Below the pieces are notes generated by a model, which did not search any database, was not told the DNA's origin, and worked only from the letters and a program-made list of their open reading frames with translations. Positions 8,756 to 29,087 of a stretch of DNA of 29,166 bases are shown here, one piece after another; positions within the stretch are counted from its first letter, which is position 1; the number at the start of each line of letters is the position of its first letter. The position numbers and the translations under genes are program-made. Source of the stretch: an uncultured archaeon (lineage in GTDB: Archaea > Iainarchaeota > Iainarchaeia > Iainarchaeales > GCA-2688035); NCBI GenBank assembly GCA_964354805.1, contig CAYHBD010000033.1, forward strand, positions 1 through 29,166. The letters are read 5' to 3'.

Positions 8756-9463
8756 TCATTCCAGTTTTTTGCACAATTCTTTTGCTGCCTTTTTCATGTC
8801 AGGCGCTTCATACAGTGCCCTGCCCACAATTGCGTGCCAGCTGCTGCCTGCTGCTTTCGCGCTTTCACTTATTTCACCGCCTTGAGCAACCAGGCCAGGG
8901 CTGTACAGCACTGGCTTTGCTCCCTTTGATTCAAGGAATTGCTTGTAGAAAGCGATCTTCTCCGGCTTGTTTCCCGGAACAACGAAATCCTGCACGCCTA
9001 ACTGCGCTGCAATTTCATACATTCTTTTTGGCGCCTCACTTAAAATGAATCCATTGTCGTTCTGCAGGAAAGCAGCATGAGTCATTTCACCGCCGACGAT
9101 TACGCCTAAGCCTGCTTTTTGGGCAGCTTGAATGAATGCTTTTTCTGTTTCAGGCCCTGATAATGGGAAAAAAATCACTGCATCAACGCCCGCATTTTTG
9201 CAGACTACCGCAAACTTTTCCGCGACATCCGGAATGTCTGTCGCTGCCTTCTGGTGGTCGTAAATAAGCGGTGCTTCAATGAATTTTCTTGCAGTTTTCA
9301 CCAATTTTGGCAAACCATAGCGCAGCGCAAGCTGAAAGCCGATTTTGTAAGCGCCAATCCCTTTTACATCAGCTGTTTCTTTTACCAGATGCTCGAATTT
9401 TTTCAAGTCAGCAATATCGCATGCTGGGATAATGCTTCTGTCTGCTTCAATTATTTTCTTCAT
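8756..9463 (-). CDS. pyrF: Orotidine-5'-phosphate decarboxylase
   Basis: IIPACD, YKIG, DHQKAATDIP, VVPGNKP, SPGLVAQGG, AIVGRALY. Confidence 0.93.
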   Translation of the reverse strand: MKKIIEADRSIIPACDIADLKKFEHLVKETADVKGIGAYKIGFQLALRYGLPKLVKTARKFIEAPLIYDHQKAATDIPDVAEKFAVVCKNAGVDAVIFFPLSGPETEKAFIQAAQKAGLGVIVGGEMTHAAFLQNDNGFILSEAPKRMYEIAAQLGVQDFVVPGNKPEKIAFYKQFLESKGAKPVLYSPGLVAQGGEISESAKAAGSSWHAIVGRALYEAPDMKKAAKELCKKLE

Positions 9464-9548: not shown

Positions 9549-9857
9549 TTATTTCTTCCTCAGCAGCGTAATTAATTGCTTTACCTTCCGCTCAAGTGTT
9601 ATTTTAAGCATTTCTTGTTCTGCTTCTCTCTTAAGGGCACCCGCACCGAGTCGGTCTGCGAACATAGAAGCAGCCAAACCCTTGCCCTGCCATTCCTTTT
9701 CTCCCTTCAGAAGATTTTTTTGCTTTGCTTTTAATTCATCAATTTCTTCTTGCAGACGAGGTATCTGTATTTCAAGCATTTTCCTTTTGATACTTTTCAG
9801 CAAAGCATGCCTCAAAGCAGTATTGGCTCGTCTTATTCTTCCAATTTTCTTAATCAT
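9549..9857 (-). CDS. Orphan basic coiled-coil protein (102 aa)
   Basis: ATG overlaps pyrE stop (ATGATTAA) with SD GGTGA upstream; [12 protein letters not shown].. Confidence 0.65.
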
Positions 9858-10488
9858 GCCCTTTTTCACCAGCGTGCTTTTCACTCCATTGCTGTGGCGC
9901 TGCGAAGTATTCCTTTATTGAATCAAATTGCTCTTTGCTGATTTTTTTGTTTTTAAGCAGAATCTGCAGCATTTCGCTTACCGTGAAAACGGTGTGCAGC
10001 TGGTAGCCTTTTTCCAGCAGTTCCTTTTTGCCGCCCTGCTCCCTGTCAACCAATACAACAATGTCCTTTACTTTCAAGCCAGCTCCCTCCAACGGAGAGA
10101 TTGCCTCAAACTTGCTTGCCCCAGTTGTAATCAGGTCATCGTACACAAGAATTGTTTCCCCTGCCTTGAATTCACCTTCAATCTCCCTTTTTGTTCCATA
10201 ATCCTTCTGCTCTTTTCTCGGGTAAATCATTGAATAGTTTCCCTGCAGGCTCACAGCTGTTGCAATTGGGATTGCTGCATAGGGAATTCCGGCAATCCTG
10301 TCAAAATGCAGTGGCTTTGTAATTTTAATCAGCTCGCCTGCAACATTGCGCAAAACATTTGGATAAGATACAAGCACCCTCAAATCAATGTAAATCGGGC
10401 TCAGCAATCCGCTCTTCAAAGTGAACAAGCCGAATTTGACCGCGCCGATTTCGAACAACTCGCTGCACAATTTTTCTTTACTGTTCAT
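9850..10488 (-). CDS. pyrE: Orotate phosphoribosyltransferase
   Basis: [45 protein letters not shown]; SD AAGGGGG before ATG 10488. Confidence 0.96.
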
Positions 10489-10519
10489 TAATAATCCCCC
10501 TTTTAAGTCATCTAGATTC

Positions 10520-10942
10520 TTATATGATTCTTTTTTCTGCATTTCTAATTGTTTTTTCCTCAGTATCAATTAAAAATGTCCCAAGATCTCTTCTTTCCTT
10601 GCTGGTCAGGTCCTCCCCTGTGCACACCTTAAAATAAACATAGCGCTCATTTGAACTAACCCTGTCTACGATATAAGTGTATTGCCCAACGCTGGTACTT
10701 TCATGCATTTGCAGTTTAGCCCAAACCGCTTGTGTAATTTTTGGAAACCAGCCACTGCCAATTGTTCTTAATTCAACAACCATGTGCAATGCGGGTATTC
10801 TATTTTCAAGTGCTTTTTTATTTTCTCCACTTAACCTTCCTTGTCTCGTTAGCTTTCTCAGTTGCCGCTCTCTTTTTTTCGCCGTTCTCATCTTCTTTGC
10901 GATAGATTCCCCCGAATATCCCCTGTGTTTGCCTCTCCCCAT
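10520..10942 (-). CDS. Orphan basic protein (140 aa)
   Basis: ORF with AAGGGG SD before ATG 10942; MGRGKHRG...[12 protein letters not shown]; AT-rich. Confidence 0.7.
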
Positions 10943-10999
10943 TTTTAATTGCCCCTTAATCAATTAAGCTTCCCTGAAACAAAAGCTTTTCCTTTGAAC

Positions 11000-11456
11000 T
11001 CATTGCTCATCCTGCCTCTTTACAACCTTTCTCTGTAATCCGGAAGAACGGATTATTCCTGCTCCAGTGATTCTACCCCCCCTTAAGAAGCCTTAGAGTT
11101 GTCTTCCTTTTTTGTTCGGCCTCTCGCGCCCTCTTGTTTCCAGTTGGTCCACGAAACCTTATAGACATTGTTATCCCCACCTTTCCTTTGGATTCATTCA
11201 ACAACTCCCTAATAATTCTGACTATTTTGTTAACTTAAATTCCGGTTCTTGTTCCATCTGTTTCGCCTTTTGCAATCTTTTTCCTTTGCTTAACTTCATC
11301 TTGAATCATTTTTTTTGCTAAAGGGCTTGTAACCTTGCTGGCTTGGTTTGCAACTCTTTGCGTTTCTGCATCAAAGCCACTTGTCAGCTGTTGTTGGACC
11401 CGCTTTTTAGATCTCCGCGCAGTCCACCAATTCCGAATCCTTAATCTAAATTTCAT
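11000..11456 (-). pseudogene. Decayed or split basic orphan (73-aa ORF 11235-11456, in-frame continuation to 11073, frameshift at a G7 run)
   Basis: After TAA at 11235 the same frame continues VNKIVRIIRELLNESKGKVGITMSIRFRGPTGNKRAREAEQKRKTTLRLLKGG*; removing one G from 11076-11082 extends it to TGA at 11000. Confidence 0.45.
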
Positions 11457-11528
11457 TCAATTACCCCCTTGAACTCTTTCAAATTAATTCAGCCTTCATT
11501 TAATAAAACTTTTTTTTATGCAAATTAA

Positions 11529-12815
11529 TTAAACAACATTTCCATTTTGCATTGCAACTTTTCCTGCAACAATTGTCTGCACTGGCGAGCCCTGCAATTC
11601 CCAGGTTGCGAACGGGCTCCAGTTGCACTTGGTCTTAAGCCTGCCGTTCTTTATTGTCTGCTTCTTCTGCAAATCAATCAGAGTGAGGTCAGCATCATTT
11701 CCTGTTTTAATTTCTCCCTTGCTTTCAAAGCCGTAAAGCTTTGCCGGATTGCTGCAGCAAAGTTCAACCACTTTGCGCAACTCAATTTTTTCCTTGTTCA
11801 CTGAATCCAAAAGCAAGGGCAGCATTGTTTCAATACCGGGAATGCCGCTTGGCGCCTCCCAGTAACTCTTTTCCTTTTCCTCTTTTGTGTGCGGGGCATG
11901 GTCTGTTGCAATCAAATCAATAACGCCCTGCCTGATTCCCTTCCATAGCGCATTAACATCCTCTTTGCCCTTCAAGCTTGGATTCATTTTAGCAAAATTC
12001 CCCAGCTTCTCTGTTGCTTCCTCTGTCAAAAACAGGTAGTGCGGCGCTGTTTCGCAGGTAATGCCATCCCTTGATTCCTTTGCCTCTTTAATCAATTCAA
12101 GTCCTTGCGCGCTGCTTACGTGCAGAATGTGCAGCCTGTTTCCAATCTCTTCCTGCAGCCTCAATGCTTTTTCTATTGCCTTTGCCTCTGCTTCGCAGGT
12201 CCTGATTTTTGAATGGTAGCGCGCGTGATTCCACCCTTTCTCTTTTGCAATCGCGGTGTTCGCTTTTATTATTTCTTCGTCCTCTGCATGCACTGTTACA
12301 ATAATGCCCCTTTGTTTTGCAATTGAAAAAATCTTTCTCAAAATGTTTTCGTCAGTAACAAGCAGGTTGCCAGTGCTTGCGCCCAAAAAAACCTTGATGG
12401 AAGCAATTCCTTCAGCAGCCTGCAGTTCCTGCATGTTATCATTGCTTGCGCCAAAGTGAAAAGAGAAATTGCATTTGCTGTCAGCTTTTGCAATCTCGTT
12501 CTTTTGTAGCAGCGCTTCCCTTGTTGTGCAGCTTGGGTTGTTGTTCGGCATGTCAATTACTGTTGTAACGCCGCCTGCAACAGCCGCGCTGCTCCCTGTT
12601 TTCCAATCCTCTTTGTATTCCGCTCCCGGAACCCTAAAGTGCACATGGGCATCAATCAGCCCGGGCAGCAGAATCTTTCCCCTGCAATCAATCCTCTTTG
12701 GCGCATTCGCTGTCTGTTCGATTGCAGCAATCTTCCCATTTCGCACAAGAACGCTTTTCGGCTGCAGTTTTCCCGCAACGAAAACCAAAGCGTTTTCAAG
12801 AACAAAGTCCATCAT
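11529..12815 (-). CDS. pyrC: Dihydroorotase
   Basis: PGLIDAHVHFRVPG, GGVTTVIDMPN, KMNPSL, IATDHAPH; SD GGAGG before ATG 12815. Confidence 0.95.
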   Translation of the reverse strand: MMDFVLENALVFVAGKLQPKSVLVRNGKIAAIEQTANAPKRIDCRGKILLPGLIDAHVHFRVPGAEYKEDWKTGSSAAVAGGVTTVIDMPNNNPSCTTREALLQKNEIAKADSKCNFSFHFGASNDNMQELQAAEGIASIKVFLGASTGNLLVTDENILRKIFSIAKQRGIIVTVHAEDEEIIKANTAIAKEKGWNHARYHSKIRTCEAEAKAIEKALRLQEEIGNRLHILHVSSAQGLELIKEAKESRDGITCETAPHYLFLTEEATEKLGNFAKMNPSLKGKEDVNALWKGIRQGVIDLIATDHAPHTKEEKEKSYWEAPSGIPGIETMLPLLLDSVNKEKIELRKVVELCCSNPAKLYGFESKGEIKTGNDADLTLIDLQKKQTIKNGRLKTKCNWSPFATWELQGSPVQTIVAGKVAMQNGNVV

Positions 12816-12838
12816 TACTGCCTCCATTGCACAAATTC
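12815..12838 (-). repeat. Relic copy of the pyrK 3' end directly upstream of pyrC
   Basis: GAA TTT GTG CAA TGG AGG CAG TAA (EFVQWRQ*) vs pyrK end GAG TTT GCT GAA TGG AGA CAG ACT TAA (EFAEWRQT*). Confidence 0.75.
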
Positions 12839-12845
12839 ATATTTT

Positions 12846-13415
12846 TCAATTATTTTTTATGCCAAAATCTATTCTAATTTTTTTCACTTCTTTTCTGGTT
12901 TCGAGAAAAAACCTGAGAAACTGCTTCATCTTTCTTTTGCTGCCAAGCTCTTCTACAAGCTTTTGCTGTAAGCCCAACAAAGAGGGGTGGCGCAGGAACT
13001 CTTCCCTTGGTTTGTCCCAATCCATTAACTGGGCTGTTTTTTTAAATACTTCTTGCACAATTCCCTGAATTCTTTTTACTTTGTCCTGGTCTTTTTCTGT
13101 GTTAATTATCCCCATCCTGTTCAAAGCGGCTTTAGCGCTAATGTCATTCATTGCTTCACTCATTTTTGGCCGAGCCCTTTTAATTACAACCCCGGCATCA
13201 TTCTGTGAAAAGGTTTTCTTGCCAGTTTCTTTCAACAATGCCTGTGCCTCATCCCAAATTATTCTTCTACAAACCATGCTAACCAAGTTTGCTGAAGGCC
13301 CGCGTTGTCCCCACAATCTGGCTTTACCTCTTGCCCTCTTCACCGCTTTCTTTTTGGCCCTCTGCCCCGCTGTTAAGCCAAAGCGCTCAGCAATTTTTGC
13401 AATTCTTCCCTTCAT
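12846..13415 (-). CDS. Orphan basic protein (189 aa)
   Basis: ATG abuts pyrK stop; MKGRIAKIAERFGLTAGQRAKKKAVKRARGKAR.. Confidence 0.75.
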   Translation of the reverse strand: MKGRIAKIAERFGLTAGQRAKKKAVKRARGKARLWGQRGPSANLVSMVCRRIIWDEAQALLKETGKKTFSQNDAGVVIKRARPKMSEAMNDISAKAALNRMGIINTEKDQDKVKRIQGIVQEVFKKTAQLMDWDKPREEFLRHPSLLGLQQKLVEELGSKRKMKQFLRFFLETRKEVKKIRIDFGIKNN

Positions 13416-14231
13416 TTAAGTCTGTCTCCATTCAGCAAACTCTTTGATTGAAACAGGTTTACCGCACTTCAGCAGCGCGCTTGCGCCGAACTCAGGCATC
13501 TGCCGCAGTTGTGCGCTGTTGAAAACAGGGCCGTCCTTGCATACGAGGAATTTTCCGATTGCGCAGCTTCCGCACAGGCCCATGCCGCCGCACCGCATGA
13601 ATCGTTCTAAATTCAGCTGGCACTGCACTTTGTGCTTCTCGCACAGCTCAAACACTTTTTTCAGCATCACTTCTGGTCCGCAGCCAAAAACCATGTCAAA
13701 TTTCTCTTTTGCAAGCAGCCTTTGCAAGGGGGCAGTAACAAACCCTTTTTCACCAAGGCTGCCATCATCAGTGGTTATGTAGAAGTTGGCTGATAGTTTG
13801 CCAAGCCTTTTGTTGAAAAGGCATTCTTTTCCTGTTTTTGCTCCGTTTATTATTGTTGTTTTTATTTTCTTTTTTTGCAATTCTTCAGCAAGCAATAGAA
13901 TTGGGGCTGCTCCGCAGCCGCCTGCAACAATGCAGGCTTTCTTTGCTCCCTTAATATCAAATCCTTTTCCATATGGGCCCCTTATTCCTAACTTATCGCC
14001 CTCTTTTAATTCAAACAATTTTTCCGTGAATTTACCTTTTTGCTGAACTGTTACAGCGCATTCCTTCCCTGCTGCCGTGAGCGTGAATGGCTTTTCATCA
14101 ATGCCAGGCAGCCAAACCATTGCGAACTGGCCTGGCGCTGCTTGCATTGCGTAATCCAGGTAAAAAGTCTTTATGCTCGGCGTTTCCTGCACAATTTTTT
14201 TTATTGCTGCAATTGCTGGCTTTTCAGTCAT
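13416..14231 (-). CDS. pyrK: Dihydroorotate dehydrogenase electron transfer subunit
   Basis: PGQFAMVW, GIRGPYGKGF, VAGGCG, CGPEVM, ERFMRCGGMGLCGSC...VCKDGPVF; SD GGTGA. Confidence 0.95.
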   Translation of the reverse strand: MTEKPAIAAIKKIVQETPSIKTFYLDYAMQAAPGQFAMVWLPGIDEKPFTLTAAGKECAVTVQQKGKFTEKLFELKEGDKLGIRGPYGKGFDIKGAKKACIVAGGCGAAPILLLAEELQKKKIKTTIINGAKTGKECLFNKRLGKLSANFYITTDDGSLGEKGFVTAPLQRLLAKEKFDMVFGCGPEVMLKKVFELCEKHKVQCQLNLERFMRCGGMGLCGSCAIGKFLVCKDGPVFNSAQLRQMPEFGASALLKCGKPVSIKEFAEWRQT

Positions 14232-14919
14232 TTCTTTTTTCACCCAGCGCTGTTTTTACAATGTTTTCAATTAACTCAATGCCTTTTTTTGAGTCAGCTG
14301 GCAATTTTTCTGCAAGCTTTTTAATCATTGTTTCGCCGATCATTGCTGTCCTAAGCAATTGGGTTTCGTTCAGGGATTCTGCATGGCCTGGTCCTCCAAA
14401 TGTAGCTTCTCTCCTTATGATTGCAAGGTTTGCTCTTGCGTTCTCTTCTATTGTTTCTAAATATTTCTGAATTTCTGGTTTGCTTTCCCTGAATTCGCTC
14501 CGCGCTTTTTGTATTATTTGCACAGCAGCTGAAAAAACGTTTTCTGTTTTTTCTATCGAGGTGTGCTCGGTAAAAGCCCTCCATACCGCTATTCTGATTG
14601 TTTCAGCATCCGCAATCAATTGAAACATTGCTTTCTCACCCTGTGTTGCAATGTCTCCCCTTTTGCCTGTTTTCCAGAGCCCCTGCAAAAAGGCTTTCTG
14701 CAAACCAAGCCTCAAAATTGCTCTGCCGCCCGGGCTTTCAGCCAATTTGTGCTGCTGTATTATTTCATCAGCCAAATCATGCAGGCGCATTTTTCTCATC
14801 ATTTCTCCAATGCCATGCGCCAGAGCGCCTTTGTCGCTTTTAAATTTAATTATGCCTCTTTTTATTGACTTTCTTCCGCGGCCCCTGCTTTGCCCACCAG
14901 ACATTTGCCTTTTAGCCAT
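14224..14919 (-). CDS. Orphan helical protein (231 aa) with basic N-terminus
   Basis: ATG overlaps pyrD stop (ATGGCTAA) and its stop overlaps pyrK start (ATGACTGA); MAKRQMSGGQSRGRGRKSIKR.. Confidence 0.75.
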   Translation of the reverse strand: MAKRQMSGGQSRGRGRKSIKRGIIKFKSDKGALAHGIGEMMRKMRLHDLADEIIQQHKLAESPGGRAILRLGLQKAFLQGLWKTGKRGDIATQGEKAMFQLIADAETIRIAVWRAFTEHTSIEKTENVFSAAVQIIQKARSEFRESKPEIQKYLETIEENARANLAIIRREATFGGPGHAESLNETQLLRTAMIGETMIKKLAEKLPADSKKGIELIENIVKTALGEKRND

Positions 14920-15826
14920 GCGTTGCACCCCTTATCTCATCCAAGCTTTTCACTCCGTTCTTTTTCATCCACTCTTCCATTTCCCTGCAGACTTTTTTGA
15001 AAACGCCAATTCCATGGTAATAAACGCCGCTGCCAATTCCAACAGCTGTTGCCCCTGCTTCAATGAATTCAATTGCATCCAATCCTGAATTAATTCCGCC
15101 CATCCCAAGGACTGGAATCTTCACTGCCTCGTATATTTGGTAAACGCATCTCAGTGCAATGGGCTTTATTGCCGGTCCTGATATTCCTCCGAATTTGTTT
15201 GCAAGCAATGGCTTTCTTGCTTGCGTATCAATCAGCATTCCTGGACCGAGAGTGTTTATTGCGCAGATTGCATCAGCGCCTGCTTTCTCGCAAGCGCTTG
15301 CAATAGCGGCAATGTCCAATGCCTGCGGTGTAAGCTTTGGCATTATTGGAATGCCTGCAGAAACTTTTTTCACTGCGCTTACAACCTCTCCAGCAACAGC
15401 ACAGTCAACCCCGAATGGCTGCCCTTGGCCTTTGCTGTGCGGGCAAGACATGTTTAATTCAATCATTGCAGGCTTGTGCTGGGCAACAAATTCAGCAATG
15501 GCTGCATATTCCTCAACGCTGTTTGCGTAAACTGATGCAATAACAGGAATATTGCATTTTGCAAGGGCTGAAAGCTCTTCCCCCAGATTTTTGTAGCCTG
15601 GGGAAGGCAGCCCAACGGCGTTTATCAGGCCGTGCTCCCATTCAATTACTGTCGGGTTTGCATAGCCGTCTTTTTCGCAAGGACCAATGCTTTTTGTTGT
15701 TACTGCGCCTGCTCCGCCTTCCTTTACAACGCGCAGCATCAGTTCAGCTGTTGTTCCAAGAATGCCTGAAGCCAGAACAGTTGGGTTGCTCAACCTAATT
15801 CCTGCAAAATTTGTCTGCAATTGCAA
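14912..15826 (-). CDS. pyrD: Dihydroorotate dehydrogenase family 1B catalytic subunit (TTG start, 15826 or 15829)
   Basis: NPTVLASG, GAVTTKS, ELNMSCPH, AINT, GGISGPAIKPIAL, GMGGI. Confidence 0.96.
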   Translation of the reverse strand: MQLQTNFAGIRLSNPTVLASGILGTTAELMLRVVKEGGAGAVTTKSIGPCEKDGYANPTVIEWEHGLINAVGLPSPGYKNLGEELSALAKCNIPVIASVYANSVEEYAAIAEFVAQHKPAMIELNMSCPHSKGQGQPFGVDCAVAGEVVSAVKKVSAGIPIMPKLTPQALDIAAIASACEKAGADAICAINTLGPGMLIDTQARKPLLANKFGGISGPAIKPIALRCVYQIYEAVKIPVLGMGGINSGLDAIEFIEAGATAVGIGSGVYYHGIGVFKKVCREMEEWMKKNGVKSLDEIRGATHG

Positions 15827-15873
15827 CAAAACCCGCTAAGAATTGAGTTTGATTATTTATTTAAAGATAGCGC
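15824..15873 (-). promoter_or_regulatory. pyrD-operon promoter/leader; TATA probably shared with divergent rpe
   Basis: GCGCTATCTTTAAATAAA...GGGTTTTGTTG; 37/50 identical to the pyrB upstream region. Confidence 0.7.
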
Positions 15874-18177: not shown

Positions 18178-19308
18178 GTGCTGTTAGTGCAGCAAGTAGT
18201 TCAAAGAGCAGTTAAGCGGGCAAAGGCTTTGCCTGCAGTGAAAAGAAAGCCGATAAAGGCAACTCAGGATAACGAAGAGCTAATTAAGTTGCTTGAAACA
18301 GCCAAGGCAAAAATCAGGGTTGTTGGAGTGGGAGGCGGAGGCTGCAACACCATTGAGAGAATGACCGAAATCGGAATAACGGGAGCGGAAACATTTGCAG
18401 TCAACACCGATGCCCAGGATTTGCTTAACACTGTTGCCGACAAAAAGGTTTTAATCGGCAGAAACTTAACAAGAGGGCTTGGCAGTGGCTCAGACCCTAG
18501 CGTTGGGGAAGGCGCTGCAAAGGAAAGCCAGGAAGAGCTTGAAAGTGTTTTGGAAGACAGCGATTTGCTTTTCATCACATGCGGCTTGGGCGGCGGCACT
18601 GGAACAGGTGCTGCGCCTGTTATTGCCGAAATCGGAAAGCACATGAAAGCGCTTACAATAGGGGTTGTCACAATTCCCTTCACTGTTGAAGGGAGAAAGA
18701 GAATGGAGAACGCTTTGGGCGGCCTGGGGAATTTGCGCAAAAACACTGACACTGTTATTGTCATTCCAAACGACAAGATTCTGGAGATTGCCCCTGATTT
18801 GCCTGTGAATGCAGCATTCAAGGTTGCTGACGAAGTCCTGACAAATGCAGTAAAGGGAATTACCGAAATGGTTACAAAGCCCGGATTAATTAACTTGGAT
18901 TACGCTGATTTGCGGACAATTTTAAGCAGGGGCGGTGCAGCAATGATTGGCCTTGGAGAAAGCCACAGCACTGAGCAAGGAGAAGCTAGGGCGTTGGAAG
19001 CAGTTGAAAACGCTTTGACATCGCCGCTTTTGGATGTTGACATAAGCTGTGCAAACAGGGCCCTGATAAATGTAATCGGCGGTGCAGACATGACCCTGAG
19101 GGAAGCCGAAATGATTGTTGAAACAGTCAGCAGCAAGATAAGCGACAACGCCCACATAATCTGGGGAGCAATGATTGACGAGAACATGTCGAAGAACCAG
19201 ATTCAGGCAATGGTTGTAATAGCAGGCGGAAAGTTCCCTTACTTGGAAGACACTGACAAAGTCAATTTGGCAGAGCCAATCGATTTGGGAATAGAATTTA
19301 CTGGGTAA
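18178..19308 (+). CDS. ftsZ: Cell division protein FtsZ (exact start uncertain)
   Basis: VVGVGGGGCN, NTDAQDL, GLGGGTGTGAAP, PGLINLDYAD; ftsZ-secE-spt5 synteny. Confidence 0.98.
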   Translation: MLLVQQVVQRAVKRAKALPAVKRKPIKATQDNEELIKLLETAKAKIRVVGVGGGGCNTIERMTEIGITGAETFAVNTDAQDLLNTVADKKVLIGRNLTRGLGSGSDPSVGEGAAKESQEELESVLEDSDLLFITCGLGGGTGTGAAPVIAEIGKHMKALTIGVVTIPFTVEGRKRMENALGGLGNLRKNTDTVIVIPNDKILEIAPDLPVNAAFKVADEVLTNAVKGITEMVTKPGLINLDYADLRTILSRGGAAMIGLGESHSTEQGEARALEAVENALTSPLLDVDISCANRALINVIGGADMTLREAEMIVETVSSKISDNAHIIWGAMIDENMSKNQIQAMVVIAGGKFPYLEDTDKVNLAEPIDLGIEFTG

Positions 19309-25971: not shown

Positions 25972-26047
25972 CTTCAAGCTGTTTTACCGTTGCCCTTGGC
26001 TAAAGTCGGCAGCAGTTCAGCTGACTTCAAGCTGTTTTACTGTTGCC
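25964..26047 (-). repeat. Tandem copy of the smc 3' end
   Basis: GCA ACA GTA AAA CAG CTT GAA GTC AGC TGA vs GCA ACG GTA AAA CAG CTT GAA GTC AGC TAA; offset 53. Confidence 0.92.
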
Positions 26048-29022
26048 TCGCCTTTCTCGATTTTTTCCCTCAGCTTTAATCCAATGACGCTGCTTTTGTC
26101 CTTGCTCACTGCCACGCCGATTATCTGGTCTGCTCCCTGGATCAGTGGATCGTTGTGGGTTATTGCAATGAACTGGCTTTGCTTGCTGACTTCCTTGATT
26201 ATTTTAACCAGCTTCATTGAATTCTCCTTGTCCAATGCTGCATCAGCCTCGTCAAAAATATAGAATGGCGCAGGCTCGTACAATTGGATTGCGAAAAGGA
26301 AAGCAAGCGCTGTAAGGGTTTTCTCACCGCCAGACATTGAATCAATGTTTTTGATGTTCTCTCCCTTGTGCTTTGCCTCAATTAACAAGCCTGCTTCAAG
26401 CGGTTCCTCTGGCTTGCTCAGGCTCAATCTGCCTTCCCCTGCAAACAGGTTCCTGAACATCTCGCCGAAATTCCTGTTCAATGCATCAAAGCACTGCATG
26501 AAAATGTTCTTCCTTTTCACATCAATCTTTTCAATCATTTCCAATACGGCAAGCCTTTCTTTGTCCAGCAGGGCAACCTTCTCCCTAACATCCTTGACCT
26601 CTGCAGCCAGCTGCTCGAAAGATTCAATGGCTTTCAGGTTAATTGCGCCCATTTCGCTGATTTTTTTGTCAATTTCATTAATCCTGGGCTGCAGCGCGTG
26701 CCAGTCTGCTTTAGCCAGCTTGAGCACATCAGTAAACTGCTTTGCCTCCTCCTGCAAATCAGCCAGCCTAACCTGCATTTTGCTTTTCTCAATCTGCAGG
26801 TTGTTTTCATCCATCTGGGCCTGCCTCAGCTTCCGCTCCTGTTTTTTCGCCCTGAGCAGCAATTCCTCGATTCTCTCTTCCATCGCATCCCTTTCGGCTG
26901 CTGCTTTTTTGTTCCCTTTCTCAACCTTGTTCAGTTCATCCTCCAATTCATTGATTTTCGCGTCAGCGTGCTGCAGCCTTTTCTTCGTTTCCTCTATTCC
27001 GGCGATTATTTCCCTGTTCTCTTTCTGCACTGCCTGCTGCAGCTGCATCAAACCATTCCTCTGCCTTGACAATTGTACGATTGTTTTTCCTTCAATTGCA
27101 GCCTTCTCCTGCTGCAGTGCATTCAGCTTCCCGTGCAATTCAATCTCTTTCTCGCTGATTTCCTGCAATTCATTCACTGCAGCAGCATCGCTCAACCTGC
27201 GCCTCTGGGCTGCAATCTGGTTCAGTTCTGCCTGCTTTGCATTTGCCTCTGATTCAAGCAGCACAATCTCAGCTGTTTTCTTCTCAACACCTGCACCCTG
27301 CACGCCTGCCTTTGCAGCCGAGATTTTTTCCATGCTCTCTTTTAACTGCGCCTTCAATTCATCAAAATCCCTTAACTGATACAGCAATTCCCTTTCCTTT
27401 TCAGCAGCTTCCCTCAGCTCCCGCTCTTTTTTCAATGCATCAGCCTTCTTTTCAGCTGCTGCACTTTCCCTTTCAAGCATCTTCTTCAATTCTGCTTCCT
27501 TGCTTTTAATCAGCTGCAGCCTTTTTTCTTTCCTCAGCTCGCTTTCGCAAACAGGGCACAGAGCGCTGCTTTTGTTCAATAAGCCGATTGTTTCATTCAG
27601 GTTCTTTTTCCCTAGTTCAACTGCCTTTATCTCATGCAGCAGCCGCTCATGCTGCTGCTCTGCAACAGCAATCTTTTCAGCCAGCTTTCCGAATTTTCTC
27701 TGCAGCACCTGCAGCAGTTCGCTGGCGTTCTGCTTTTCCGCAAGCTTTTCCTCAATTCTTTTCTGCATTGCAGCCAGTTCCTGCAATTGCTTTCCCTGCA
27801 ATGCAATCCCGTGCTGCATTACCCGCAATTCGCTTACTGCCTTCACTCTTTTCTCGTTCAGTTCGCGCATTGCAGCATTCAATTGCTGCTCCTTTGAATG
27901 AATTTCCTGCAGCTCGGCAGCTTTCCCCTGCTGGCTCGACTGCAATTTTGCCTTCCTCTGCTGCAAATCGGCAACCTGCTGCTGTAAAGGGGGCAATTCC
28001 TCCATTATCTGCTTTACCCTGCTTTTTTCACTGTCAGTTTCCTTTGCAATAGCGTTTGCTTCAGCCTCTGCCTCTTCAACCCTCCTGTTGTTCCTTGCAA
28101 TCAGGCCTTTGTTTCCCTCAATCCTTTCAACCAGCTGGCTTTTCTCGCTTTTAGCTTCCTCGAGCTTTGAGCCAATTGTTGAATAAATCTTTTCGCTCGC
28201 GCTCAGCAGCTCATCTCCGAGGCGCTTTGCCTCCTGCCTTAATTTTTCAGTTTCAGCATTTGCCTGGTCGAGCTGCTGCTGCTCTTCGTTCTGCTGCTTT
28301 TCAAGCAATGCAAGCCCTTGATTTGTTTCAAGCATGCCCTTGTTTATTTCATCAATCTCATGCGCCAGCAATGTTGCCTTTGCCTGCTTCCTTTCCAGCT
28401 CAAGTTGCTTGAACAAAACAGCCGCTTCCCTTTCATGCTGCAGTTCCTGCAGGTAGTTCTCCCTTTCCTGCATGACAATGCCTGCATCCCTGAGCTTTAT
28501 GTCAACCTTCTCCAGATTTTTCAGCGCCTCTTCTTTCTTCAAATCAAACTCCTGCAATCCGGCAAGCTCGTCAACAATCTGCCTTCTCTCCAATGCATTC
28601 ATTTCAACAATCCTTGTTACATCGCCTTGCACAACAATGTTGTGCCCATCAGGCTTCACCCCCAATTCAAGCAGAAGCGAGCTTATTTCCCCCAGTGTTT
28701 TCCTCTGCCCATCCAGCCTGTAAACACATTTTCCCTGCTTGTCAATAAGCCTTTCAATAACATAATCCTTGTGGTCGTGCTTTAACGCCAGCTCTACCTT
28801 TGCATAGTTCTCAACAGCGCTGTTGTTCACCAATTCGCTTAATCTGCCTGCCCTCAAAGCCTTCAAGCTAGTAATGCCCATTGCGAAAAGCAGCGCATCC
28901 AGAATATTGCTCTTGCCGCTCCCGTTGCCGCCGACAATGCAGGTAAAGCCATTGCTCAGGGGAATGTCCGCTTTCTTAAAGCTCTTGAAGTTTCGCAAAA
29001 CAAGGCGATGCAGCTTGACCAT
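26017..29022 (-). CDS. smc: Chromosome segregation ATPase Smc with central CPVC zinc-hook motif (1001 aa)
   Basis: NFKSF, Walker A GGNGSGKSN, VVQGDV Q-loop, MSGGEKTL, PAPFYIFDEADAALD, QFIAITH; SD GGTGA before ATG 29022. Confidence 0.9.
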   Translation of the reverse strand: MVKLHRLVLRNFKSFKKADIPLSNGFTCIVGGNGSGKSNILDALLFAMGITSLKALRAGRLSELVNNSAVENYAKVELALKHDHKDYVIERLIDKQGKCVYRLDGQRKTLGEISSLLLELGVKPDGHNIVVQGDVTRIVEMNALERRQIVDELAGLQEFDLKKEEALKNLEKVDIKLRDAGIVMQERENYLQELQHEREAAVLFKQLELERKQAKATLLAHEIDEINKGMLETNQGLALLEKQQNEEQQQLDQANAETEKLRQEAKRLGDELLSASEKIYSTIGSKLEEAKSEKSQLVERIEGNKGLIARNNRRVEEAEAEANAIAKETDSEKSRVKQIMEELPPLQQQVADLQQRKAKLQSSQQGKAAELQEIHSKEQQLNAAMRELNEKRVKAVSELRVMQHGIALQGKQLQELAAMQKRIEEKLAEKQNASELLQVLQRKFGKLAEKIAVAEQQHERLLHEIKAVELGKKNLNETIGLLNKSSALCPVCESELRKEKRLQLIKSKEAELKKMLERESAAAEKKADALKKERELREAAEKERELLYQLRDFDELKAQLKESMEKISAAKAGVQGAGVEKKTAEIVLLESEANAKQAELNQIAAQRRRLSDAAAVNELQEISEKEIELHGKLNALQQEKAAIEGKTIVQLSRQRNGLMQLQQAVQKENREIIAGIEETKKRLQHADAKINELEDELNKVEKGNKKAAAERDAMEERIEELLLRAKKQERKLRQAQMDENNLQIEKSKMQVRLADLQEEAKQFTDVLKLAKADWHALQPRINEIDKKISEMGAINLKAIESFEQLAAEVKDVREKVALLDKERLAVLEMIEKIDVKRKNIFMQCFDALNRNFGEMFRNLFAGEGRLSLSKPEEPLEAGLLIEAKHKGENIKNIDSMSGGEKTLTALAFLFAIQLYEPAPFYIFDEADAALDKENSMKLVKIIKEVSKQSQFIAITHNDPLIQGADQIIGVAVSKDKSSVIGLKLREKIEKGEATVKQLEVS

Positions 29023-29087
29023 AATACGCTCACCAAGCAATAAAGGCAATTAATTGATAATATAAGAGAATAAATAACCCATTTAAA

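Follow-up and report, generated by a model that had tools for sequence, protein, structure and literature searches.

In Escherichia coli, prophage e14 and phage 21 integrate into the 3′ end of icd; the element supplies a replacement end for the gene, and the old end is left as a pseudo-copy. We analyzed a pyrimidine (pyr) operon of an uncultured archaeon (GTDB lineage Iainarchaeota, Iainarchaeia, Iainarchaeales, GCA-2688035) in which six co-oriented orphan open reading frames (ORFs), O1 to O6, occupy all four internal junctions of pyrD-K-C-E-F. The operon lies on contig CAYHBD010000033.1 (C33) of assembly GCA_964354805.1, which comprises 1.38 Mb in 49 contigs. The window is this contig at its full length of 29,166 nucleotides (nt), and its features lie on the minus strand unless stated otherwise. 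As with e14 at icd, the upstream gene gains a slightly different 3′ tail, the resident tail persists 3′ of the insert, and the differences between tails are enriched for silent changes. Unlike the phage elements, the pyr inserts carry neither an integrase nor phage genes, their cargo is limited to one or two small genes, only ∼25 to 55 nt of tail are duplicated, and the next operon gene uses the relic as its start region.

Homology-facilitated illegitimate recombination, in which homology at one end in a conserved gene is combined with an illegitimate joint, would give the same order of donor tail, cargo, and resident relic. The accretion of orphan genes in operons is also similar, in that the inserted genes are taxonomically restricted and fast evolving. 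The pyr operon differs from both in its unusual density of inserts, with every internal junction of one operon occupied. The encoded proteins recall the basic extensions at the N or C terminus of ribosomal and nucleoid-associated proteins, among them the nuclear localization signal-type motifs of archaeal ribosomal proteins (bioRxiv 10.1101/671966; PMC7189692). In both cases, disordered arms that are rich in Lys, Arg, and Gly, poor in acidic residues, and non-hydrophobic are attached to small folded domains, and composition is kept as the sequence drifts. Unlike those extensions, the orphan arms belong to domains that match no ribosomal, histone, or nucleoid family and are encoded in a metabolic operon, and their binding to RNA or DNA is only putative.

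On balance, we think that the orphans are probably lineage-specific genes of one Iainarchaeota (DPANN) family that were inserted serially into a compact pyr operon, with arms that would bind polyanions rather than direct export.

Orphan genes inserted into a compact pyr operon

The gene order on the minus strand is pyrB, pyrI, (rpe on the opposite strand), pyrD, O1, pyrK, O2, pyrC, O3, O4, O5, pyrE, O6, and pyrF. Several other families of the order have a compact, overlapping pyr operon with no inserts (loci L036, L040, L044, L048, L054, and L055). Because this compact pyrBIDKCEF operon is found in several other families, we conclude that the orphans are secondary insertions. Where operons of other families do carry inserts, these are assorted and not basic, and they include toxin-antitoxin-like pairs and a response-regulator-like gene. 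One such pair, judged by eye to be two small HicA/HicB-like genes, lies between pyrE and pyrF in a genome of another family (L036 5584-6049, G047). The window provides a clear, datable case of a textbook operon gaining genes in a reduced archaeal genome, with the compact state persisting in sister families.

A first-pass annotation, made from the sequence of the window, had described a class of orphans that starts at every internal junction, shares an orientation, and uses a housekeeping operon for its expression. The starts that it gave (14919, 13415, 11456, 11168, 10942, and 9857) were all confirmed on the minus strand, and the coupling of three orphans to the upstream stop was confirmed for O1, O2, and O6. 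The start of O1 (14224..14919, 231 amino acids) overlaps the stop of pyrD by 8 nt (ATGGCTAA), and its own stop overlaps the pyrK ATG by another 8 nt (ATGACTGA). The pyrK stop abuts the start of O2 (12846..13415, 189 amino acids) with zero spacing (TAAATG), and the pyrE stop overlaps the start of O6 (9549..9857, 102 to 111 amino acids) by 8 nt (ATGATTAA). O3 (11235..11456, 73 amino acids), O4 (11073..11168, 31 to 43 amino acids), and O5 (10520..10942, 140 amino acids) are preceded by gaps of 72, 66, and 130 nt, respectively, each with a G-rich Shine-Dalgarno-like motif; that upstream of O4 is AGGTGGGG. An RNA element in the gap between O4 and O5 was considered and rejected (fold z −0.7).

Orthologs of O1 were found in 10 of the 22 genomes of the same family and in one neighboring genus (G074), and the main copy lies directly 3′ of pyrD in every genome that has it. 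These orthologs share 23 to 46% identity, compared with 65 to 79% for pyrD and pyrK of the relatives. O5 has orthologs in 11 of the 22 family genomes, almost always between pyrC and pyrE, at 31 to 40% identity versus 55 to 82% for pyrC and pyrE. Orthologs of O3 lie 5′ of pyrE in G004, G018, and G020 (28 to 55% identity). O2, a genus-level insertion between pyrK and pyrC, has one clear ortholog, just 5′ of pyrC in G005 (33% identity, E value of 2e−16); at this junction, other relatives hold an unrelated family, FK2, or nothing. The rate of evolution of the orphans is two to three times that of the flanking enzymes. Presence in the family is patchy (10 of the 22 genomes for O1, 11 for O5, 2 for O2, and 0 for O6). 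The first-pass proposal is borne out in that the orphans are a class of unrelated, lineage-restricted proteins with a polycationic N-terminal arm in common and that this class rides in a housekeeping operon, with genes that were inserted secondarily and vary in presence among relatives. The description of the orphans as rapidly turning over is too strong, since the orthologs of O1, O3, and O5 keep to the same junction, or close to it, in different genera.

Not every copy is confined to its junction. FK2, which occupies the pyrK junction in five relatives, is located among unrelated genes in the genome studied here (contig C9:100340-100978, minus strand), where it adjoins a small gene resembling a winged-helix regulator. 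O5 lies outside the pyrC-pyrE junction in G021. A divergent O1 paralog with an N-terminal charge of +7 to +11 is found near the pyr operon, 3′ of an eIF-2B-like gene, in G016 (L095 1492-2187) and G013 (L096 1465-2160); the eIF-2B-like gene probably encodes ribose-1,5-bisphosphate isomerase. G074 has an in-frame fusion of a haloacid dehalogenase (HAD) hydrolase with pyrK (L053 862-2316, 484 amino acids) directly 3′ of an O1-like basic protein.

No match to O1 to O6 was found in Pfam, PHROGs, NCBIfam, or PADLOC, and the junction proteins of the relatives likewise had no significant family match there. HHalign comparisons between the orphan families gave probabilities of 1.5% or lower throughout and no mutual relation, in agreement with the first-pass view that the bodies share no similarity. 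Sequence-profile searches of the PDB returned chance-level matches only, the ESM Atlas gave no usable match, a phage collection searched with O1 gave no match, and a search of genome and metagenome collections for loci related to O1 returned nothing. When 1.84 billion cluster representatives were searched with a profile, the O1 family comprised only 36 members, nearly all of them stand-alone proteins of about 170 to 245 amino acids. For O6, the only relatives among 5.8 billion proteins were one protein of 87% and one of 99% identity, with no convincing family-level match. No homolog of O4 was found in any locus retrieved, and O3 and O4 have the lowest coding scores of the set (0.08 per codon for O4, which we regard as a doubtful gene). 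The possibility that the orphans are decayed duplicates of adjacent pyr genes in another frame was rejected, with all z-scores below 3. Four or five of the six ORFs are taken to be real genes.

Structure models, which cover O1 and O5, were built with AlphaFold2 from shallow alignments. The O1 model (predicted local distance difference test [pLDDT] of 80, predicted template modeling score of 0.76) is an eight-helix domain preceded by a disordered arm at residues 1 to 27 (pLDDT below 50). The O5 model (pLDDT of 78) is a small alpha+beta domain with a basic arm of ∼50 residues that is of low confidence over most of positions 1 to 50 and partly helical. Foldseek searches with the two models against the PDB and BFVD gave no match at an E value of 0.001 or better. 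In a wide fold search (VIA), O1 matched only a generic helical hairpin (Z 8.8), and the best Z for O5 was 4.6. Gly, Leu, Pro, Phe, and Ala predominate in the conserved columns of both families, in which no set of residues looks catalytic, and the two proteins look like binding or structural proteins rather than enzymes. The inserted genes would encode real, folded, taxonomically restricted proteins.

Displaced gene ends in the operon and across the genome

Throughout the relatives, pyrK ends in KEFAEWRQ, and where pyrC follows directly, the pyrC start sits within that tail. In the window, pyrK (13416..14231) keeps its own tail, and a second copy, YEFVQWRQ plus stop, lies 3′ of O2 at 12815..12841, where it overlaps the pyrC start and supplies the GGAGG of pyrC. 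A search of all six frames of the genome for stop-terminated matches to the pyrK tail ranked this relic first (score of 33; next best, 27). In G012, a pyrK-pyrC spacer of 245 nt without a long ORF contains a 19-codon, extremely basic micro-ORF (MKPKKRKK...; L030 7104-7180), and only the TGGAGG core of the pyrK tail remains before pyrC.

A second scar is found at the next junction. The body of pyrC (11529..12827) is of type 1, with a sliding identity to type 1 of 0.58 to 0.86 along its length, and the last 18 codons (11529 to 11585) resemble the type-2 pyrC of genus g5; the identity of the last block is 0.40 to type 1 versus 0.53 to type 2. A relic of a type-1 pyrC tail (GKAFVSGKLN plus stop) is located at 10960..10992, just upstream of O5. 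It is the best match in the genome to the pyrC tail of G012 (ERVFVSGKLD plus stop; score of 31; next best, 25), and in G001 a genuine type-1 pyrC tail lies directly 5′ of O5. The chimeric end of pyrC and the type-1 tail stranded before O5 indicate that the earlier state was pyrC-O5-pyrE. A later insertion brought the foreign tail and O3, with the O4 region, as a block. Insertions of the icd type are recognized by a duplicate or a replacement of the 3′ gene end next to the insert, which the pyrK relic, the pyrC relic, and the chimeric pyrC provide, and the two scars show the direction of the event. No integrase or recombinase gene is present inside the inserts, with every ORF between pyrD and pyrF accounted for. 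The orphans matched no nuclease domain (GIY-YIG, HNH, LAGLIDADG, or PD-(D/E)xK) in Pfam, PHROGs, NCBIfam, or PADLOC; fold comparison, which covered O1 and O5, likewise gave no structural match.

Tail relics are not confined to the pyr operon. A stop-terminated downstream copy of the last ten residues was found for 56 of 1034 genes, compared with 5 in a permuted control. Such copies comprise the last 8 to 12 codons and the stop in ∼5% of genes and are mostly located 4 to 100 nt past the stop. Two insertions are recent, with cargo between near-identical tail copies of 40 to 50 nt: two small genes at C9:28419-29513 (site to 30300) and a gene for a 170-amino-acid PIN-domain-like protein at C46:1895-2866 (site from 1190). 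When nucleotide identity was the sole basis for choosing tail pairs, synonymous differences made up 41% of the differing codons, versus ∼22% expected (P = 6e−5), and 7 of 11 changed stops were still stops (P = 3e−4). This fits tail pairs that would have diverged as working alleles in different lineages and then been joined by recombination, and the relics across the genome suggest frequent allele-level recombination in this uncultured DPANN lineage. The cargo between tail copies elsewhere in the genome is not consistently basic, so that the footprint and the basic arm are two distinct phenomena, which coincide in the pyr operon. Within the window, ftsZ (18178-19308, plus strand) and smc (26017-29049, minus strand) also have tail copies.

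A sequence of events can be proposed for serial insertion. The ancestral state would be a compact, overlapping pyrB-I-D-K-C-E-F operon into which genes were inserted one after another. The inserted genes would probably be expressed from the operon, presumably by cotranscription, through stop/start overlaps or their own Shine-Dalgarno motifs, and would then be inherited at the same junction. Blocks of tail and cargo may at times be exchanged between relatives, with recombination as the likely means of transfer. An incoming block would carry its own copy of the 3′ tail of the upstream gene and displace the resident tail downstream, where it could survive as a relic that provides the next gene with its start or ribosome-binding site. 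The operon would carry the orphans as its junctions tolerate inserts and give steady expression.

Basic N termini against the genomic background

Genes were called with a simple codon-score caller, which gave 1434 genes in the genome. The net charge of residues 2 to 31 is +7 to +11 in O1 to O6 (+11 in O2), compared with a mean of +1.8 (standard deviation, 3.1) over 1372 called proteins, and this places the six orphans between the 93rd and 98.5th percentiles of those proteins. A charge of +10 or more was found for 30 proteins in the whole 1.38 Mb, and 4 of these fall within the 5.4-kb pyr stretch, where ∼0.12 would be expected by chance (an estimate). The first-pass annotation had singled out Arg/Lys-rich, non-hydrophobic starts, and the comparison with the genome shows that these are not plain background.

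The background is itself basic. The proteome has a median isoelectric point (pI) of 9.1, with 70% of proteins above pI 8; the pI of O3 is 11.5. The coding strand is purine rich, and many ribosomal-type proteins on contig C9 share the same style of start (MPKK.., MAKK.., and MGK..). N termini at +7 or more make up 17% of the lowest coding-score class genome-wide versus 4% of the highest. Because basic starts are more common among weakly coding genes, which are probably lineage specific, the background is not neutral. N-terminal basicity is real and clustered in the pyr operon, yet it is the extreme of a genome-wide habit.

The charge is also conserved. Over the first 30 residues, it is +5 to +12 among orthologs of O1, +6 to +14 for O5, and +7 to +8 for O3; FK2 proteins have tail charges of +7 to +10, and 35 representatives of the O1 family have a mean N-terminal charge of +6.2. 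The tails of orthologs cannot be aligned in sequence, and positive composition is nevertheless kept. In one genus, a HAD hydrolase with an N-terminal charge of −1 to −6 lies between O1 and pyrK; thus, insertion at a junction needs no basic start. No hydrophobic segment was found in O1 to O6, in which the highest Kyte-Doolittle mean over 19 residues does not exceed 0.79, versus 1.2 to 1.6 in the flanking enzymes. None of the six orphans thus has the hydrophobic h-region that a Sec signal or, together with a twin-arginine motif, a Tat signal would require.

By analogy with ribosomal and nucleoid extensions, the polycationic, partly Arg-Gly-rich arms most likely bind RNA, DNA, or another polyanion in the cytoplasm. 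We regard the basic N termini as a conserved feature of proteins that belong to the lineage itself, whose proteome is very basic, and not as an effector signal.

Alternative readings and neighboring features

Several observations weigh against serial insertion of genes with polyanion-binding arms. A proven footprint is available for only two of the four junctions: a pyrE tail relic before pyrF was rejected, being absent from the best matches in the genome, and a PyrD-like C terminus of O1 was not significant. Some short tail copies could be tandem duplications, and in some the downstream spacer is duplicated too. O4 is unsupported as a gene, and every relative found for O6 is near identical to it. 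The function of the arms is deduced from composition alone, and the N-terminal bias could stem in part from purine-rich, unstructured translation-start regions rather than from protein function. The position of O1 after pyrD wherever the main copy occurs is compatible with a pyr-linked role. Such a role would make the orphans lineage-specific accessory subunits, scaffolds, or regulators of the adjacent enzymes, with position held by function; for example, O1 would serve the PyrD/PyrK heterotetramer, and PyrC/PyrE would be served by O5 or O3. It agrees with the placement of O1 directly 3′ of pyrD in all 10 family genomes and G074 and with O5 and O3 remaining between pyrC and pyrE in most genomes, and the start/stop overlaps would match expression levels. 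However, FK2 has its place at the pyrK junction in five relatives and on another contig here, O5 is off its junction in G021, and an O1 paralog follows the eIF-2B-like gene in G016 and G013. In addition, the compact operons of several other families lack any orphan, so that orphans and operon do not strictly co-occur, and the orphans diverge far faster than the enzymes. We consider an accessory role unlikely for these genes, and in general they are not likely to be explained by a strict pyr role. The first-pass annotation had held that conservation of the orphans at these positions with pyr-related functions would overturn its proposal; positional conservation is seen for O1, O3, and O5, and no pyr-related function has been shown. 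The displaced tails at two junctions and genome-wide, the chimeric pyrC tail, the patchy presence across genera, and the toxin-antitoxin-like pairs among the pyr-junction inserts of other families could instead be the work of selfish single-gene cassettes, homing- or integrase-like, that spread themselves among relatives, target the 3′ ends of conserved genes, and use the arm to bind DNA for mobility. This is distinctly unlikely, as family searches recognized no domain of a nuclease, integrase, or transposase in the orphans or their neighbors, structural residues make up most of the conserved columns of O1 and O5, the orthologs look vertically inherited at fixed sites, and in other parts of the genome the cargo between tail copies is not consistently basic.

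The N termini have also been read as a common targeting signal that directs the proteins to the outside of the cell or to a host, which was the effector or cargo reading of the first-pass annotation. DPANN archaea are commonly host associated, and a conserved N-terminal composition on unrelated bodies is what a shared signal would produce. The proteins lack a hydrophobic core and any pattern resembling a Sec or Tat signal, the trait grades into a whole proteome with its median pI of 9.1, ribosomal-type proteins on C9 begin alike, the HAD insert lacks a basic tail, and no secretion genes are linked to the operon. We find export very improbable and do not retain this proposal. There is little chance, slightly more than for export, that purine-rich spacer DNA accounts for some of the ORFs, which would then be open frames rather than genes and rich in Lys and Arg by composition alone. 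O4 without a homolog, the low coding scores of O4 and O3, O6 known from near-identical sequences only, the purine-rich coding strand, and the basic micro-ORF in the G012 spacer would all be explained in this way. This explanation does not extend to O1, O2, O3, and O5, which have diverged orthologs with conserved domains, or to the confident folds of O1 and O5, and all of the orphans have a ribosome-binding motif or stop/start coupling. Finally, an undescribed, integrase-free form of gene accretion might be at work, in which blocks of replacement tail plus cargo move among the housekeeping operons of relatives and leave relics after ∼5% of genes, with the arms functionally tied to the process (e.g., nucleic acid binding for transfer or for expression in foreign operons). 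We give this a small chance, comparable to that of the accessory role, and favor serial insertion of lineage-specific genes.

The enzymes flanking the orphans have the expected assignments. pyrD (14912..15829) encodes the catalytic subunit of dihydroorotate dehydrogenase 1B (Pfam DHO_dh, E value of 7e−72), and pyrK, whose start was assigned by comparison with relatives, encodes the electron-transfer subunit (Pfam DHODB_Fe-S_bind and NAD_binding_1). pyrC encodes dihydroorotase (Pfam Amidohydro_1). The orotate phosphoribosyltransferase gene pyrE (9850..10488) is 64 to 82% identical to pyrE of relatives; its match to Pfam Pribosyltran (E value of 3e−5, 23.7 bits) is under the gathering cutoff of 26.3 bits. 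O6, between pyrE and pyrF, is basic with a coiled coil predicted from sequence, and pyrF (8756..9463) encodes orotidine 5′-monophosphate decarboxylase (Pfam OMPdecase). In the operon of genus g5 and of G011, a type-2 dihydroorotase and a second-type aspartate carbamoyltransferase-like gene replace type-1 pyrC (L024 6112-8417, L027 10271-12576, L031, L034, L035, and L051); this pair is ∼35% identical to pyrB and pyrC of the window. An Iainarchaeota-type pyr operon with 71% PyrK identity was also found in a record titled Chloroflexi bacterium (L062, JAFCCG010000001.1), a title that is probably a binning or labeling error. The only Rfam match in the window is a 5S rRNA gene at 400-516 on the minus strand (RF00001, 66.5 bits). 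A SLOG/LOG-like gene and an AMP phosphorylase-like gene of the thymidine phosphorylase family lie 3′ of pyrF.

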